Shown here piece by piece: positions 29,570-35,195 of a stretch of DNA of 64,000 bases (the stretch's first letter is position 1; every line of letters starts with the position of its first letter). A program made the position numbers and the translations under genes. A model generated the notes under the pieces. It did not search any database, had not been told where the DNA came from, and saw only the letters and a list, made by a program, of their open reading frames with translations. The stretch is from a virus. Lineage: Duplodnaviria; Caudoviricetes. The stretch covers positions 1 to 64,000 of the IMG/VR virus record IMGVR_UViG_2562617158_000001; one strand, written 5' to 3'.

Positions 29570-30512
29570 ACCACACAAAAGACGAATTAAAGGAACTCCA
29601 GTCGCTCCCCTTGGTAGATAAGGTGGCGTTAACAAAGTTAAGAATCACTGAATGGCACGAGCATTATAACGGCAAAGTGTATGTAAGCTTTAGTGGCGGC
29701 AAGGACTCCTCTGTATTACTTCACATCGCAAGGGAAATTTACCCAGAAGTGGGGGGGTATTTGTTGATACTGGCTTAGAGTTTCCAGAAGTTAAAGACCA
29801 TGTAAAGTCATTTGAAAATATTACAATCATACGTCCAAAGAAGTCCTTTGCTCAAGTGATTCAAGATGAAGGTTTGGTATTTCCGTCTAAGGAGGTTGCT
29901 CTAGACGTTTATTATGCTCGAAAAGGCTCTCTGTGGGCAATCAACAAATTTAATGGGCTTGATAGGCATGGAAACAAGGATGCCTACAAGCAGTCCAGTA
30001 TGAAATGGAAATGGTTGATTGGTTCGCCGTACAAGATTAGCCCCTTCTGTTGCGACATAATGAAAAAGAAACCCGCTCATCAGTACACAAAACAGACTGG
30101 TGAGTTTCCGATACTAGCAACAATGGCTTCCGAGTCCAGGCTGAGGTATAATGCATGGATAAAGACAGGCTGCAATGCGTTTGATGCGACGTATCCATCG
30201 TCTAAGCCAATGAGTTTTTGGACAAATCAAGATGTCCTTGAATACATTGCTTATCATCGTGTGAAAATCCCTAGCGTCTATGGGAATGTTGTAAAATCTA
30301 AGAATGGGAAATACGCAACAACGGGGGAAGATAGGACTGGCTGTGTATTTTGCCCGATTGGATGTCATCTTGAAAAGGGAGATAGCCGTAGGTTTGTGCG
30401 ACTGTCTAAGACGCATCCCAAGCTGTACGACTATTGCATGAACAAACTAGGAATGAAAGAACTACTTGATGCAATCCAAGAACATACTGGATGTGAAAAG
30501 CTTTATGTATGA
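29566..30512 (+). pseudogene. PAPS-reductase/DndC-like PP-loop protein, frameshifted at a G7 tract (29751-29757)
   Basis: SFSGGKDS in upstream ORF; adding one G joins it to VFVDTGLEFPE...CC..MKKKP...RTGCVFCP of the downstream ORF. Confidence 0.85.
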
Positions 30513-30705
30513 TAAGATTAGCTGCTTTGCAGATTGTGGCAGTGAGTGCCTTATAATGCGTGTTCCGTATGATATTGCAGCCACGATGATGAAGAATATG
30601 CCTGAATCTGATGCTAAAAACCAACTCATAGAGCGTGCAAGGGTGGCTTCTAGGCGTTCAAAGATATTGAAATCGGCTCTCGATGAAATTTTTGAAAAAA
30701 AATAA
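30505..30705 (+). CDS. Hypothetical protein
   Basis: Overlaps upstream stop; MYDKISCF. Confidence 0.5.
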   Translation: MYDKISCFADCGSECLIMRVPYDIAATMMKNMPESDAKNQLIERARVASRRSKILKSALDEIFEKK

Positions 30706-30720
30706 AAAAAATTACAAAAC

Positions 30721-30770
30721 ACCGAACAATTACCCCCATTTTTATACATTATATATAGAGGGGTAATTTT
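30721..30770 (+). promoter_or_regulatory. Phage-specific promoter-like motif, copy 2
   Basis: ACCGAACAA-N16-ACATTATATATAGAGGGGTAATTTT. Confidence 0.7.
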
Positions 30771-30997
30771 ATATGATTATCACTCGTAGACACGGTTCGC
30801 CTCCTTACCGTGTCTATTTTCATGTCCAAGAGGCATAGGTGGGAAACTATTGTACACTCCCACCACCTACCGTCATAACGACGAACACGGTATATGGATT
30901 TCCCCTTTCGTTCATATGCCGTTACCATGGCAGGGACAAGGTTAATGCCTTGAATCTGCATTGAACGAGAATGGGGATGTGTAGAAAGGGAATTGAT

Positions 30998-31588
30998 ATG
31001 AATGAGAATTTTGGCGCGGTCGCTCATGTTGAATCTTACGGAGTGACCGTTAGTATTTATGGAACGTTACGGATGCCCTTTGTTAAGGCAATGGACTTAG
31101 CTGATTGGATTGACCATCGGTTAGGCCGTACAGAGGTCATGGTTGAGACGTTGGGTATCAGTCCATATCGTGATGAAAACAATGAGCCGTATTATACATT
31201 GCGGACAGCTGCAAAAACAATCCTTGAATATTTCCCTAGAGGAAATGGCAAGGCTTTCCTTGATGTGATTCATCGGAAACTCAAGTACCTCAATGTACGT
31301 GATGGACGAGAGTATATGAATCATGTTGATGATGATAAGGTATTCTCCATGAATCAGTTTGCAGGAACTGTATGGAATAGATTCAGTATTGGACACAACA
31401 AGCTGTATCGTTGGATGGTGAATCATGGATATATCTATAAGACACCTGAGAACAAATACATGCCATATCAGCGTTACATTGACTATGGATGGTTTATTGT
31501 CAATCCGCTGAAAGACGATAGGTCCTATACGGAAATCACGAGTTTAGGATCGTTGGTGTTGATGGAATCTCTAGAGCGTCACAACTGA
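30998..31588 (+). CDS. Antirepressor-like protein with KilA-C (ANT) C-terminus
   Basis: IGHNKLYRWM..GYIYK..NKYMPYQRYIDYGWF, TEITSLG. Confidence 0.7.
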   Translation: MNENFGAVAHVESYGVTVSIYGTLRMPFVKAMDLADWIDHRLGRTEVMVETLGISPYRDENNEPYYTLRTAAKTILEYFPRGNGKAFLDVIHRKLKYLNVRDGREYMNHVDDDKVFSMNQFAGTVWNRFSIGHNKLYRWMVNHGYIYKTPENKYMPYQRYIDYGWFIVNPLKDDRSYTEITSLGSLVLMESLERHN

Positions 31589-31602
31589 CGCTCTTTTGTT
31601 TT
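31574..31602 (+). terminator. Intrinsic terminator
   Basis: GAGCGTCA-CAAC-TGACGCTC-TTTTGTTTT. Confidence 0.7.
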
Positions 31603-31604
31603 AT

Positions 31605-31622
31605 AGGAGTGTAGCCAAGTGG
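31605..31622 (+). pseudogene. 5' fragment of split tRNA (acceptor strand + D arm start)
   Basis: AGGAGTG-TA-GCCAAGTGG; pairs with CACTTCT-G-CCA at 32483-32493. Confidence 0.75.
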
Positions 31623-31648
31623 CTATGTGTTAAAGATATGAATATTAT

Positions 31649-31723
31649 AGGGATATAGTTTAATGGTTAAAACGATTGACTTTGAATCAATAGATTTCAG
31701 TTCGATTCTGAATATCTCCGCCA
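31649..31723 (+). tRNA. tRNA-Gln(TTG)
   Basis: Cloverleaf; ATTGA-CTTTGAA-TCAAT anticodon arm, TTCAG-TTCGATT-CTGAA T arm, G73, encoded CCA. Confidence 0.9.
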
Positions 31724-31755
31724 TTGATATGTTTTTTAATACTTGGTGATGAATA

Positions 31756-32454
31756 TTGACAAAATACGATTATAGTAGAGAGAACTTAGCTAAAATAGTC
31801 TCTCAGTCTGAATCTATTTCTGATGTTGCAAGAGCCTTAGGAATGACTACGAAGGGTGCAAACCATAATACGTTAAAAAGAAAAATTAACGAATTTGATT
31901 TGGACACAAGTCATTTTAAAGGGAAAGGATGGAGCAAGGGCAGGAGCCTTGAAAAAGTACCTATAGAAGATTATTTAAATAATACCAGAAAAATATCTTC
32001 ATGGAAATTAAAAAATAGACTTCTAGAAGAGCATTTGAAAGAAAATGTTTGTGAAATATGCGGCATATCAGAATGGAATGGAAAGCCAATTTCTTGTCAA
32101 CTACACCATAAAGATGGAGATAATACTAATAATTCATTAGATAATCTACAAATGTTATGCCCCAATTGCCATAGTCAAACAGATAATTTTGCAGGGAGGA
32201 AAAATCGTAAACATAGTGCGAGGAGACGTAAGCATATATCAAATATTGATAGAGCACTAACAAAAGAAGAACGGAGTAAGATAAATCAACACCCTCGACT
32301 AGGGCTTAGACGGGTAGCTAGGCCAAGCTATTTACAATTTAAGAAAGAATTAACGGAATTTAATAATAACTATTGTGCGATGGCAAGAAAGTATGGTATT
32401 TCTGATAGTGCTATAAGAAAGTGGGAGAAATCCTATAAAAAATATGGGGTTTAG
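31756..32454 (+). CDS. HNH homing endonuclease with HTH-like N- and C-terminal domains
   Basis: CEICG...LHHKDGDNTNNSLDNLQMLCPNCHSQT; visibly more AT-rich than flanks. Confidence 0.9.
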   Translation: MTKYDYSRENLAKIVSQSESISDVARALGMTTKGANHNTLKRKINEFDLDTSHFKGKGWSKGRSLEKVPIEDYLNNTRKISSWKLKNRLLEEHLKENVCEICGISEWNGKPISCQLHHKDGDNTNNSLDNLQMLCPNCHSQTDNFAGRKNRKHSARRRKHISNIDRALTKEERSKINQHPRLGLRRVARPSYLQFKKELTEFNNNYCAMARKYGISDSAIRKWEKSYKKYGV

Positions 32455-32493
32455 GTCCTGCATCCGTTGGTTCGAATCCAACCACTTCTGCCA
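32448..32493 (+). pseudogene. 3' fragment of split tRNA (Gln-like)
   Basis: GG-TTTAGGT-CCTGC-ATCC-GTTGG-TTCGAAT-CCAAC-CACTTCT-G-CCA. Confidence 0.8.
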
Positions 32494-32499
32494 ATATGA

Positions 32500-32910
32500 A
32501 ATTACATGAAATAGCCATCGGTATGTCTGTGAACAGAATCCGTAGAATGGGCGTTGGCATTCCTAGACCTTGCGGAGGGGTCTATAATATCTAACCGTAA
32601 ATGTCATCGGGGTTTTCACAGGGATTCCGATGACTACATAGATTATTACACTGTATGCATAAAAGCATGGTTCGCTATGAGAATCATTGCTAACCCATAT
32701 GGTGTTCATCACGGTGAGTCGGGGTAGCTCCCCATAGACAGGTTTCCATTCCTTCCCCTGTCAGCTCACCGTTATTTATGACAAGAACAAGGTTAACGCC
32801 TTGTGATTGCGAACATGATATGTGAAAGCTGAAAATTCAGCTGTAACCTATTTAGCTCGTCCGCAACAATGCGGAATCGAGTATCTGGGGTCGTAAGACG
32901 CGACCCCTGC
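32500..32910 (+). ncRNA. Array of hairpins / putative small structured RNAs
   Basis: Stems at 32603-32634, three-way junction 32711-32772, 32787-32803, 32855-32882, 32887-32907; no good ORF. Confidence 0.45.
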
Positions 32911-32914
32911 TTAT

Positions 32915-33031
32915 GTCGTAGTAGCTCAAGGGATGGACATTCCATCTGTGGCGAGAGCAAAGGAGCATATGCTTAACGAGGTGCACATCGTTAATTAATC
33001 CTTGATACGGGTTCGAGTCCCGTCTATGGCT
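32915..33031 (+). ncRNA. tRNA-like RNA with hairpin insertions in D loop and anticodon loop
   Basis: GTCGTAG/CTATGGC acceptor, GCTC/GAGC D stem, AAGGA/TCCTT anticodon stem, ACGGG-TTCGAGT-CCCGT T arm; no encoded CCA. Confidence 0.75.
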
Positions 33032-33037
33032 TATTAT

Positions 33038-33112
33038 GCCAATGTGGCGCAATGGTAGCGCAGCGCACCTGTAATGCGAAGGTTGTCAGTTCAATCCTGA
33101 CCATTGGCTCCA
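33038..33112 (+). tRNA. tRNA-Thr(TGT)
   Basis: GCCAATG/CATTGGC acceptor, loop CCTGTAA (C at 33), T arm GTCAG-TTCAATC-CTGAC, encoded CCA. Confidence 0.88.
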
Positions 33113-33144
33113 TTAAAAAACAATACACAGAAAGGGTTTATCAT

Positions 33145-33438
33145 ATGGATGACTACAGAGTACCAACGGATGAACAGGAGACAGTTATTCAATTTGACCG
33201 CAATGGCACGGTTTGCCATGTCTATACAACAGACCTCACTGTGATGACAAAGCTTGATAAGAAATACAAGCGTGTCAAACAGGATTATGTTAATAGAAAG
33301 CCCATTGCGGCGTACTATGAGTTTGATAAGAGACTACTGTCGTTTCGCTCTAAGGTAATGAAAAAGAATCTTTCCGATGAAGAAAAGAAAAAAGCTAGAG
33401 AACAATTAGCGAAGAACAGAAAAATGAAAGGAAAGTAA
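33145..33438 (+). CDS. Hypothetical phage protein
   Basis: RBS AAAGGG; QETVIQFD...HVYTT. Confidence 0.65.
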   Translation: MDDYRVPTDEQETVIQFDRNGTVCHVYTTDLTVMTKLDKKYKRVKQDYVNRKPIAAYYEFDKRLLSFRSKVMKKNLSDEEKKKAREQLAKNRKMKGK

Positions 33439-33541
33439 TTTCAATTCTATGTCAAATTTTTAGGTAATACAACCTATATTTGCCTTGTCCTTCCGTTGGC
33501 CTATATAGTTAGACCTATTGGAAAAACAAGGAGGAATTTCT

Positions 33542-34189
33542 ATGGCAAACAAGCATCCAGTGCCACCACCACCGAGAATCAATCGAGCAGACCATCCGCA
33601 TTTTGAATCTGCGGGTATGACATTGGTCGAACAGTACAACCTGACAAACCTTGTCCGTGAAAAGCGCATGCAGGGCATGAGTTACCGTGAGTTGACGGAT
33701 TACATCAATAACACAAAGGGACTCATTCCGAACAACTATAAGATTTCACACAATTCTATTGCGCGTTACTGTAGAGACCACGGACTTGGCGGGGATGTCT
33801 CTGAGCAATCCAATGATGAAGCTGTGAATGTATATAGAGAGAATTGTAAATCTCTCCATGACATCAACACAGCTCTCGATATCATCTCTGTACAACTCGA
33901 TGAAATGAATAAACAGGTTGGCAAGGGTTCCGTCAATGTAAAGGACCTGAGTGTCATGATTAACTCGTTGGATAAGCTCACACTGCGCCGTCAAACGCTC
34001 ACGGCATCCATCGGAGAGATGCAGGAGAAAGTATACAAATACGAGACGATCTCTCGTATCATTGGCACAGTGATGGCAAAGGTATCTGTATGGATTACAC
34101 CAGAACAGTATGAAGAACTCAAAGATATGCTTCGCCAGGACCCGATTCTCTGTGAAGCATTACGTGAAGTTGCACCATCTAACATTTAA
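33542..34189 (+). CDS. Putative terminase small subunit
   Basis: N-terminal HTH-like (GMSYRELTDYI..ISHNSIARY), helical C-term, upstream of terL. Confidence 0.6.
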   Translation: MANKHPVPPPPRINRADHPHFESAGMTLVEQYNLTNLVREKRMQGMSYRELTDYINNTKGLIPNNYKISHNSIARYCRDHGLGGDVSEQSNDEAVNVYRENCKSLHDINTALDIISVQLDEMNKQVGKGSVNVKDLSVMINSLDKLTLRRQTLTASIGEMQEKVYKYETISRIIGTVMAKVSVWITPEQYEELKDMLRQDPILCEALREVAPSNI

Positions 34190-34200
34190 GGAGGATAACC

Positions 34201-34329
34201 ATGTCGATGGAAGAGAAGAACAGGCGCATGAACCATGTGAAGAAAGGCAAAGATGTTCGGCGTACCGTGAAGAATAGAGAGGATAAGAAATGGGCGAAAA
34301 AGGAAATCATGCAGTACAAGACACGGTGA
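34201..34329 (+). CDS. Small basic peptide (42 aa, not in ORF track)
   Basis: RBS AAGGAGG; MSMEEKNRRMNHVKKGK. Confidence 0.4.
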   Translation: MSMEEKNRRMNHVKKGKDVRRTVKNREDKKWAKKEIMQYKTR

Positions 34330-35195
34330 TTGTTGATGGAGATGTCTATATGGACAGCCGTGTGATTGCATGGGAGTTGCACCGCGCTCACAAGGATATC
34401 CTCGAAAAGGTACGTAGGTACACAACGGATTCCCTTGATTCTTACTATATAGACAAACAAGGGAAAAGACGAACGTCATATCTTGTCTCTCGTGATGGTT
34501 TTATCTTGATGAATATACAAGGACGCGTCGATGAACGACTCAGGATTCTCCATCGTTATGACATGGCTAAATCCGTAACAACTATTGATAAACAGCTCAA
34601 TGCATTACGTCACGATCTTAATGAATCTGGTGTTGTCCGTCCATGGATTAATCCAAGGTATCAGCTTGATAATCTCAAGTCCATCTACAAGGATGTGACT
34701 GGTGATGATACGCCGAGAGGTTTCTATGATTCCATCGGTGATTGGATGGGTATCAATGTACCCTATAGCCATCGTTTGAAAATCACTGTACGGGATTGGA
34801 TTTTACAGAATATCCCGATTGAGAAAATCAAGGAATTCGTCACAGGTATTCAATCACACACCATTGTCCGTAGCGAACGAGGGCATTGGATTTGTCTTGG
34901 CGGATTCGACAACAACACCGTTGAATGGGACAAGATTGTCAATGAATTCCATGGAAAGTGCGCATACTGTGGCGAAGAGAAGCCATTGTTGCCAGAGCAT
35001 ATCATTCCGCAAACAGTGCTCAGTAAGGAGCATCCAGAGCTTGTCGATAGGATTCAGAATGTTGTTCCTAGCTGCTCTGATTGTAACCATAGCAAATTAC
35101 GGTACAACTGGGAGCGATGGTTTAAGAGTCAACCATTCTATACAGAGTCCCGTTTCAATGCGATAAAAAGACATATTAACAAATACAAGATGTAA
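34290..35195 (+). CDS. Rha-like N-terminal domain fused to C-terminal HNH nuclease
   Basis: DSRVIA..HKDILEKVR..YIDKQGK..YLVSRDGF; CAYCG..EHIIP..NVVPSCSDCNHSK; start may be further downstream. Confidence 0.8.
   Translation: MGEKGNHAVQDTVIVDGDVYMDSRVIAWELHRAHKDILEKVRRYTTDSLDSYYIDKQGKRRTSYLVSRDGFILMNIQGRVDERLRILHRYDMAKSVTTIDKQLNALRHDLNESGVVRPWINPRYQLDNLKSIYKDVTGDDTPRGFYDSIGDWMGINVPYSHRLKITVRDWILQNIPIEKIKEFVTGIQSHTIVRSERGHWICLGGFDNNTVEWDKIVNEFHGKCAYCGEEKPLLPEHIIPQTVLSKEHPELVDRIQNVVPSCSDCNHSKLRYNWERWFKSQPFYTESRFNAIKRHINKYKM

Follow-up and report, generated by a model that had tools for sequence, protein, structure and literature searches.

A tRNA-Gln gene broken by a nuclease cassette lies in IMG/VR record IMGVR_UViG_2562617158_000001, a gut phage (Caudoviricetes) represented by one contig of 77,028 bp, whose first 64 kb (64,000 nucleotides) form the stretch of DNA analysed here, hereafter the window. 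We confirmed that the resident tRNA-Gln(UUG) gene is split by an AT-rich cassette of 833 bp (31623–32455), which carries an intact, divergent tRNA-Gln(UUG) gene, here called the spare, together with an intact gene for an HNH endonuclease, all on the plus strand. The GC content of the cassette is 32.8% versus 43.5% for the genome, with a local dip to about 0.30–0.35. The site is flanked by the gene for an ANT protein (30971–31588) and by tRNA-Thr(UGU) (33038–33112). A search with the ANT protein recovered five related viral contigs; in the closest of them, L001, the ANT protein is 91% identical and the tRNA-Gln(ttg) gene is uninterrupted (L001:6623–6699).

The 5′ remnant of the resident gene (31605–31622) comprises the 5′ strand of the acceptor stem, positions 8–9, the 5′ strand of the D stem and the D loop up to GG. 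It matches the start of the intact L001 gene (L001:6623–6640) at 17 of 18 nucleotides, and its 7-nt acceptor strand pairs with 32483–32489 on the other side of the insert. Homology to L001 ends at 31622, and a left spacer of 26 nt (31623–31648) marks the onset of AT-rich foreign DNA. The spare (31649–31723), of a sequence kind designated type A, is recognized by both ARAGORN and Rfam (tRNA, 67.7 bits). A 32-nt spacer follows (31724–31755), in which a Shine–Dalgarno-like GGTGA can be read shortly 5′ of the TTG start codon of the nuclease gene (31756–32454, 232 amino acids). The 3′ remnant (32452–32493) is firm from 32456, with a loop remnant from 32449, and holds altered positions 35–38 (TGAC to TAGG), the 3′ strand of the anticodon stem, the variable loop, the T arm, the 3′ strand of the acceptor stem, G73 and CCA. 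At 32456–32493 it is identical to L001:6662–6699 in 34 of 38 positions. Where the window reads TAGG, the clean relatives L098, L103 and L121 read TGA followed by C.

A preliminary description of this DNA had placed two tRNA fragments around an insert that contains an intact, divergent tRNA-Gln(TTG) and an HNH gene. All of these parts were recovered where it had put them, the fragments being the two ends of the gene at L001:6623–6699. It had further set the TAG stop codon of the nuclease gene on the anticodon of the broken tRNA. The stop does fall inside the anticodon loop (32452–32454), but the register is one base off: it occupies positions 35–37 rather than 34–36, and the ancestral triplet there is TGA.

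The nuclease matches phrog_10822 (HNH endonuclease) over its full length (residues 2–227, E = 1.1e-50). In an alignment with 18 homologues, the CxxC...HH...N...CxxCH pattern is invariant and comprises C99, C102, H117, H118, N126, N130, C135, C138 and H139. The AlphaFold model (mean pLDDT 79.6) has three well-folded parts separated by disordered linkers: an N-terminal helical domain, a zinc-bound HNH core whose strands and helix exceed a pLDDT of 90, and a C-terminal helix-turn-helix. Helix-turn-helix families match both ends of the protein. Matches in the PDB are weak, and all are to HNH nucleases, with the HNH of a group II maturase found by sequence (E = 0.008) and McrA and Cap5 found by fold (E ≥ 0.02). 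In-frame stop codons lie just 5′ of the TTG start, and the homologues begin at the same residues. The identical protein is encoded in 16 contigs. Invariant ligands, a full-length PHROG match and this identity across contigs make the nuclease look functional.

The uninterrupted site in relatives

Window positions 30902–31622 align with L001 5918–6640 (89% identity) and positions 32456–32814 with L001 6662–7022 (88%); between these flanks L001 holds 21 nt and the window holds the 833-bp cassette. Because the flanks align to either side of L001:6641–6661, the remnants are the two ends of an L001-type gene. The 21 nt of the ancestral gene are missing or altered in the window, where the resident tRNA has lost positions 20–34, and removal of the insert would not restore it. 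An intact tRNA-Gln also stands at the equivalent place in L004 and L005, whose ANT proteins are 54% identical to that of the window. Since these relatives keep the gene whole at the locus, the ancestral gene is a tRNA-Gln(UUG), as the preliminary description had supposed, and the insertion is the derived state. The nuclease gene is thus polymorphic for presence and absence at a single site, being absent from L001, L004 and L005 and present in the window and in a further relative, L016.

Because a 981-nt segment across both junctions is 100% identical in ten contigs, which come from ten sequencing runs, mis-assembly is excluded as the source of the split gene, and a chimeric assembly was rejected on this ground. 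Joining the two remnants artificially proved uninformative: ARAGORN called a "tRNA" for hundreds of such joins, because an acceptor stem and a T arm alone satisfy the program.

Recurrence at the anticodon loop

A protein search yielded 869 homologues of the nuclease, and the DNA flanks were read for the closest ones. Every close relative with readable DNA (53–64% identity, in several phage backgrounds) except one protein, P0010, has the 3′ portion of a broken tRNA-Gln behind it. Where the contig extends far enough, an intact tRNA-Gln immediately precedes the nuclease gene. The cleanest case is L098 (nuclease P0005, 56% identical), in which a 5′ remnant of positions 1–34 ending in CTT is followed by a 26-nt spacer, an intact tRNA-Gln and a nuclease gene whose TGA stop codon is positions 35–37 of a remnant that continues to CCA. 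Here the insert sits exactly between positions 34 and 35, and its excision would restore a perfect anticodon arm. The right junctions of L103 (P0006) and L121 (P0002) are as in L098. In L125 (P0004) a TAA stop and a few extra bases precede a similar 3′ remnant. The 5′ remnants of L017 (P0008) and L099 (P0009) extend to the anticodon loop; in L017 the nuclease reading frame continues into the 3′ remnant and ends at a TGA created in the T loop. The nuclease gene is truncated in L100–102 (P0012), and the 3′ remnant is still there. L016 (P0007, 57%), a relative of the window phage, contains the ANT gene, a tRNA-Gln, the nuclease gene and a window-type 3′ remnant, with no 5′ remnant. More distant members in L046 and L067 (about 40%) have the same four parts, with Gln again as the isotype and, in L046, a TGA stop at the junction. 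A nuclease and a replacement tRNA-Gln therefore occur together, as the preliminary description implied, in L016, L017, L098, L099, L100–102, L103 and L121 and in the distant L046 and L067. Across IMG/VR, 42 of 68 distinct family members adjoin a tRNA on the same strand, most often Leu(UAA) or Gln(UUG).

The two junctions differ in that the right is constant and the left ranges from no remnant at all to remnants ending at position 19, 34 or 37. The right junction of the window is as in L098, which places its insertion in the anticodon loop. In L098 the nuclease gene draws its stop codon from the broken tRNA (TGA at 35–37); the window has TAG at these positions. A dead chimeric tRNA at L017:2792–2875 bears on the same point. 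It consists of positions 1–34 of a tRNA-Gln joined, at a shared CTT, to positions 35–76 of a tRNA-Ile(UAU)-like gene; the cassette tRNA of L101 has an intact tRNA-Ile(UAU) ahead of it. The chimera looks like the product expected of a break at 34/35 healed by microhomology with an L101-type donor.

The point between positions 34 and 35 is the classical site of tRNA introns: the group I intron of cyanobacterial and plastid tRNA-Leu(UAA) genes lies between U34 and A35. The nuclease family also occurs in this setting. In L039 (2400–3200) and L045, both from IMG/VR, a nuclease 46% identical over the first 152 residues lies inside a group I intron (Rfam, 58–66 bits) that interrupts a phage tRNA-Leu(UAA) between U34 and A35. 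Such relatives would fit a history in which the window nuclease was formerly encoded by an intron that has since decayed, the outer tRNA is or was spliced and the inner tRNA is incidental. We consider this history highly improbable. No group I or other intron family matches window positions 30500–34000 in Rfam at E ≤ 1, and no group I intron matches at E ≤ 0.01 in L046, L082, L098, L099 or L103. The nuclease reading frame of the window extends to the last base before the 3′ remnant, leaving no room for a 3′ ribozyme core, and splicing could not restore an outer tRNA that lacks positions 20–34. On the Rfam results, the group I intron reading was rejected for the window. The cassette shares with tRNA group I introns its insertion point, its use of tRNA halves as flanking homology and, in the L039/L045 intron, its HNH family; it differs in having no ribozyme and in offsetting the damage at the DNA level, by a second copy of the gene, rather than by RNA splicing. 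At the 34/35 point the nuclease family is thus found in two arrangements, one with a ribozyme and one with a spare gene.

Cassettes also exchange parts. The window and L016 contain different cassettes, with spares of type A and type B, respectively, and nuclease gene bodies that are 55–70% identical at the DNA level. In a sliding-window comparison, however, identity to L016 rises to 95% over 32370–32505, a mosaic segment that covers the last ~85 nt of the nuclease gene and the 3′ tRNA remnant. This mosaic, together with a mismatch between spare type and nuclease lineage in P0008 and P0009, indicates that the modules recombine, and a cassette already present at a site can be overwritten by another.

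Among GenBank phages, the window nuclease is 36% identical (residues 8–156) to ORF070 of phage T5 and HegA of BF23, annotated as F-TflIV. As cited in later papers, F-TflIV is a site-specific endonuclease of the T5 tRNA region, and its neighbours there, F-TflI and F-TflII, are HNH endonucleases too (Akulenko et al. 2004, cited in PMC2330249 and PMC10644984). The T5 enzyme belongs to the same protein family, and its gene likewise directly follows a tRNA gene in a phage tRNA region. It differs from the window in its position between genes rather than inside one, and no split tRNA or remnant after the stop codon was seen in T5.

The spare tRNA, the target and the surroundings

The spare of the window is identical to the L001 resident gene at only 40 of 77 positions (52%), and to the cassette tRNAs of L017 and L100 at 60 and 61 of 75 positions (80%). 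An alignment of three intact resident genes and seven cassette tRNAs separates the latter into type A (window, L017 and L100) and type B (L016, L098, L099 and L103). All broken alleles and the intact L001 gene share one common sequence around position 34/35, which runs from the 3′ strand of the D stem through the anticodon arm into the first part of the variable loop. The cassette tRNAs keep the loop and differ from this target at about half of the flanking positions, mostly through paired changes in the anticodon stem. The spare is thus an intact, linked copy of the destroyed gene, located 32 nt 5′ of the nuclease gene, with its stems changed on both sides of the 34/35 point. Because the stems differ on both sides of the presumed cut point, the spare would be expected to escape cutting.

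The remnants decay. In L016, L017, L099 and L100 a T replaces the invariant C56, and these changes, with the loss of positions 20–34 in the window, show that the remnants are free of tRNA constraint. The locus found no relative among GenBank phages with megablast and blastn, and the spacer plus spare tRNA found unrelated tRNAs only. In IMG/VR, neither the 3′ remnant nor the spare was matched by an exact-pattern scan. A pattern built on the T arm of the spare hit 16 contigs, all with tRNAs of other isotypes (Gly, Thr and Arg), which reveals no source and says nothing about a spare without a nuclease. No spare was found in an uninterrupted allele that lacks the nuclease, in what was a weak search.

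A 26-nt target deduced from the sequence shared around 34/35 recurs without change in at least 120 bacterial species, in their chromosomal tRNA-Gln(UUG) genes (L126–L205 among the loci). Among the matches listed, nearly all of these species are gut Bacillota, mostly Lachnospiraceae, Oscillospiraceae and other Clostridia, and the host tRNA-Gln genes have a median of 55.5 matched bases to the resident phage gene versus 35.5 to the spare. The resident phage gene is host-like, since host genes match it far better than they match the spare, and the spare is evidently a different, AT-rich kind of tRNA. These matches suggest a clostridial host for the phage, and the target sequence hints both at phage host range and at possible cutting of host genes.

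The presence of the target in so many host genes could alternatively mean that the element is domesticated or stranded and no longer homes, with the nuclease kept for another job such as cutting of the host tRNA-Gln genes or local amplification of tRNA genes against tRNA-targeting defences. A precedent exists in SegB, which amplifies tRNA-Tyr against Septu (PMC13096335). We give this explanation very little weight. Ongoing mobility is indicated by the insertion polymorphism between close relatives, by the occurrence of the cassette in phages of unrelated background and by its mosaic junction with L016, and ARAGORN reveals no tandem amplification in the window.

The neighbours of the cassette include the KilAC/ANT protein and a Rha–HNH fusion, with BRO-type proteins in relatives. 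The fusion, another nuclease gene, is a single open reading frame (ORF) at 34290–35195 (+), 1.8 kb beyond the cassette; its Rha domain is N-terminal and its HNH motif C-terminal. Between the cassette and tRNA-Thr lie two further conserved features. The first, at 32711–32815 (+), is a non-coding element that is 85–90% identical across relatives whose ANT proteins are 54–61% identical; its consensus fold is a long hairpin enclosing two hairpins, followed by a second hairpin, and it is possibly a regulatory or structural RNA. The second, at 32917–33027 (+) just 5′ of tRNA-Thr, is a conserved tRNA-shaped RNA whose acceptor and T arms are tRNA-like, whose D region contains an extra hairpin and whose "anticodon arm" varies in length; it is not a decoding tRNA. 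Homologues occur at L004:6686–6772 (called "tRNA-???" by ARAGORN) and L005:6692–6790, and RNAalifold predicts 30 pairs, seven of them with compensatory changes. A BRO/KilAC-type gene lies between the conserved RNA element and tRNA-Thr in L001 (7063–7710), L002 (7377–8066) and L016 (1950–2588) and is absent from the window. On this comparison, the intergenic region up to tRNA-Thr is a hot spot of gain and loss.

Proposed homing and its alternatives

The explanation that we favour, and regard as probable, is that the insert is a mobile homing cassette, consisting of the spare tRNA-Gln(UUG), the HNH gene and the 3′ part of its target, that has been copied into the anticodon loop of a host-like resident tRNA-Gln(UUG) gene. 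In a mixed infection, the HNH enzyme would cut a naive resident-type tRNA-Gln gene at or near 34/35, and the break would be repaired from a genome that bears the cassette. On the right side, the 3′ half of the tRNA would serve as homology for repair, producing the constant junction and a reading frame that ends on U35-G36-A37 of the target (TGA, or TAG in the window). On the left side, repair after resection would rely on short or imperfect homology, in the 5′ remnant, the spare tRNA or a microhomology, and so would leave a variable junction. In the window, positions 20–34 were lost and the resident gene is dead; the spare, which retains all loops and the Gln-type features, would then supply tRNA-Gln(UUG).

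Several observations weigh against this explanation. The nuclease scores just below threshold with two Pfam models, HNH (20.1 bits, cut-off 21.4) and HNH_3 (20.4, cut-off 24.8), and cleavage, its site, immunity of the spare, expression and rescue are inferred. A promoter scan of the cassette found no site above chance, and a terminator-like hairpin with a T run (31573–31594, +) overlaps the end of the ANT gene just 5′ of the tRNA remnant. Spare type and HNH lineage are not strictly linked, as P0008 and P0009 are close in the alignment and have different spare types. The resident tRNA need not be important: a tRNA-Gln is kept at the locus in L001, L004, L005 and L016 and is absent from L002 and L003, and CAA is the minor glutamine codon of the phage (184 codons, 30%, versus 431 CAG). 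Nor is a spare obligatory for the nuclease family. P0010 (54% identical, in the ENA contigs L123 and L124) lies alone in a split tRNA that is not a tRNA-Gln; an intact tRNA-Gln immediately precedes its 5′ remnant. In the cultured Enterococcus phage vB_OCPT_Bop (L246, ON125307.1, 54555–56390), the annotated hegA is 39% identical to the window nuclease and, judged by eye only, appears to lie between 5′ and 3′ tRNA remnants with perfectly complementary 7-nt acceptor strands and no spare inside. Neither a ribozyme nor a spare is visible in the split tRNA of L123/L124 or, apparently, in that of Bop.

These last cases, and the phages that do without tRNA-Gln at the locus, would also be expected if the nuclease were an ordinary free-standing homing endonuclease with which a neighbouring tRNA-Gln is co-converted, the broken resident gene being collateral damage and no selection acting for rescue or immunity. 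Co-conversion of flanking tRNA genes is documented for SegB of phage T4 (PMC2330249). SegB of T4/T6 is a free-standing GIY-YIG homing endonuclease in a tRNA cluster that cuts inside tRNA genes of relatives without the nuclease, bringing along its own gene and neighbouring tRNA genes (PMC2330249; PMC13096335). Such passive hitch-hiking is unlikely to account for the cassette, since the spare and the broken gene have matching isoacceptors in all Gln cases seen, the spare remains intact while the remnants decay, and its divergence from the target falls exactly in the stems that flank the insertion point, with its loops kept. The homing cassette resembles the SegB system in having a tRNA gene as target and in carrying tRNA genes along, an association of homing endonuclease genes with tRNAs that is widespread. 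The nuclease fold is different, however, and SegB recognizes a T-arm motif, is flanked by intact genes and makes a clean replacement of homologous DNA; a broken target accompanied by a full spare copy has not been described for it. Like free-standing homing endonuclease genes in general, the cassette has no intron, but it leaves its target tRNA gene in two dead pieces.

The empty site and the recurrence of the arrangement support the preliminary reading of a selfish cassette. The term "antidote", which was part of that reading, may overstate the case, because L002 and L003 have no tRNA-Gln at the locus, CAA is the minor glutamine codon and the promoter scan gave nothing above chance.

Gene splitting by a nuclease gene has a parallel in MobE of the Aeromonas phage Aeh1, which reportedly splits nrdA into two genes, a case of "genes in pieces" in work said to be by Friedrich et al. 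in 2007. There too a free-standing HNH-type homing endonuclease gene lies inside a phage gene and splits it; the protein halves of nrdA, however, reportedly reassemble and work, whereas the split tRNA-Gln is dead and a complete substitute is supplied. MobE is also mentioned in PMC2330249. In the literature searched, which did not extend to most subscription journals, we found no account of a tRNA gene split at the intron site by a nuclease cassette that has a complete spare of its own.

Synthetic "Cleave and Rescue" (ClvR) drives, like natural toxin–antidote elements, link a nuclease to a recoded, resistant copy of its target. The cassette would resemble them in the tight linkage of a gene-destroying nuclease to a recoded copy that should escape. 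ClvR, in contrast, needs an essential target and the killing of non-carriers, whereas the cassette would spread by homing into a target that need not be important.

Homing endonucleases are thought to persist in self-splicing introns and inteins or harmlessly between genes. The cassette represents a third way of persistence, in which a gene is broken and a complete, differently spelled replacement is brought along. If the proposed steps hold, the cassette would amount to a naturally occurring equivalent of engineered cleave-and-rescue drives, directed at an RNA gene, and would account for the rewriting of phage tRNA sets and for the stem differences between phage and host tRNAs. It would also provide a route between intron-borne and free-standing nucleases and define an enzyme family with predictable tRNA-gene targets, host-type genes included. 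More tentatively, the cassette might belong to a general, undescribed class of mobile element: intron-like anticodon-loop homing units that rely on a complete recoded spare instead of splicing, borrow a stop codon from the target and use the universally conserved tRNA halves as portable homology arms between unrelated phages, with a nuclease that may also cut the host tRNA-Gln genes and so make infected cells depend on the resistant phage copy. The presence of a relative in a cultured Enterococcus phage suggests that this biology is testable.

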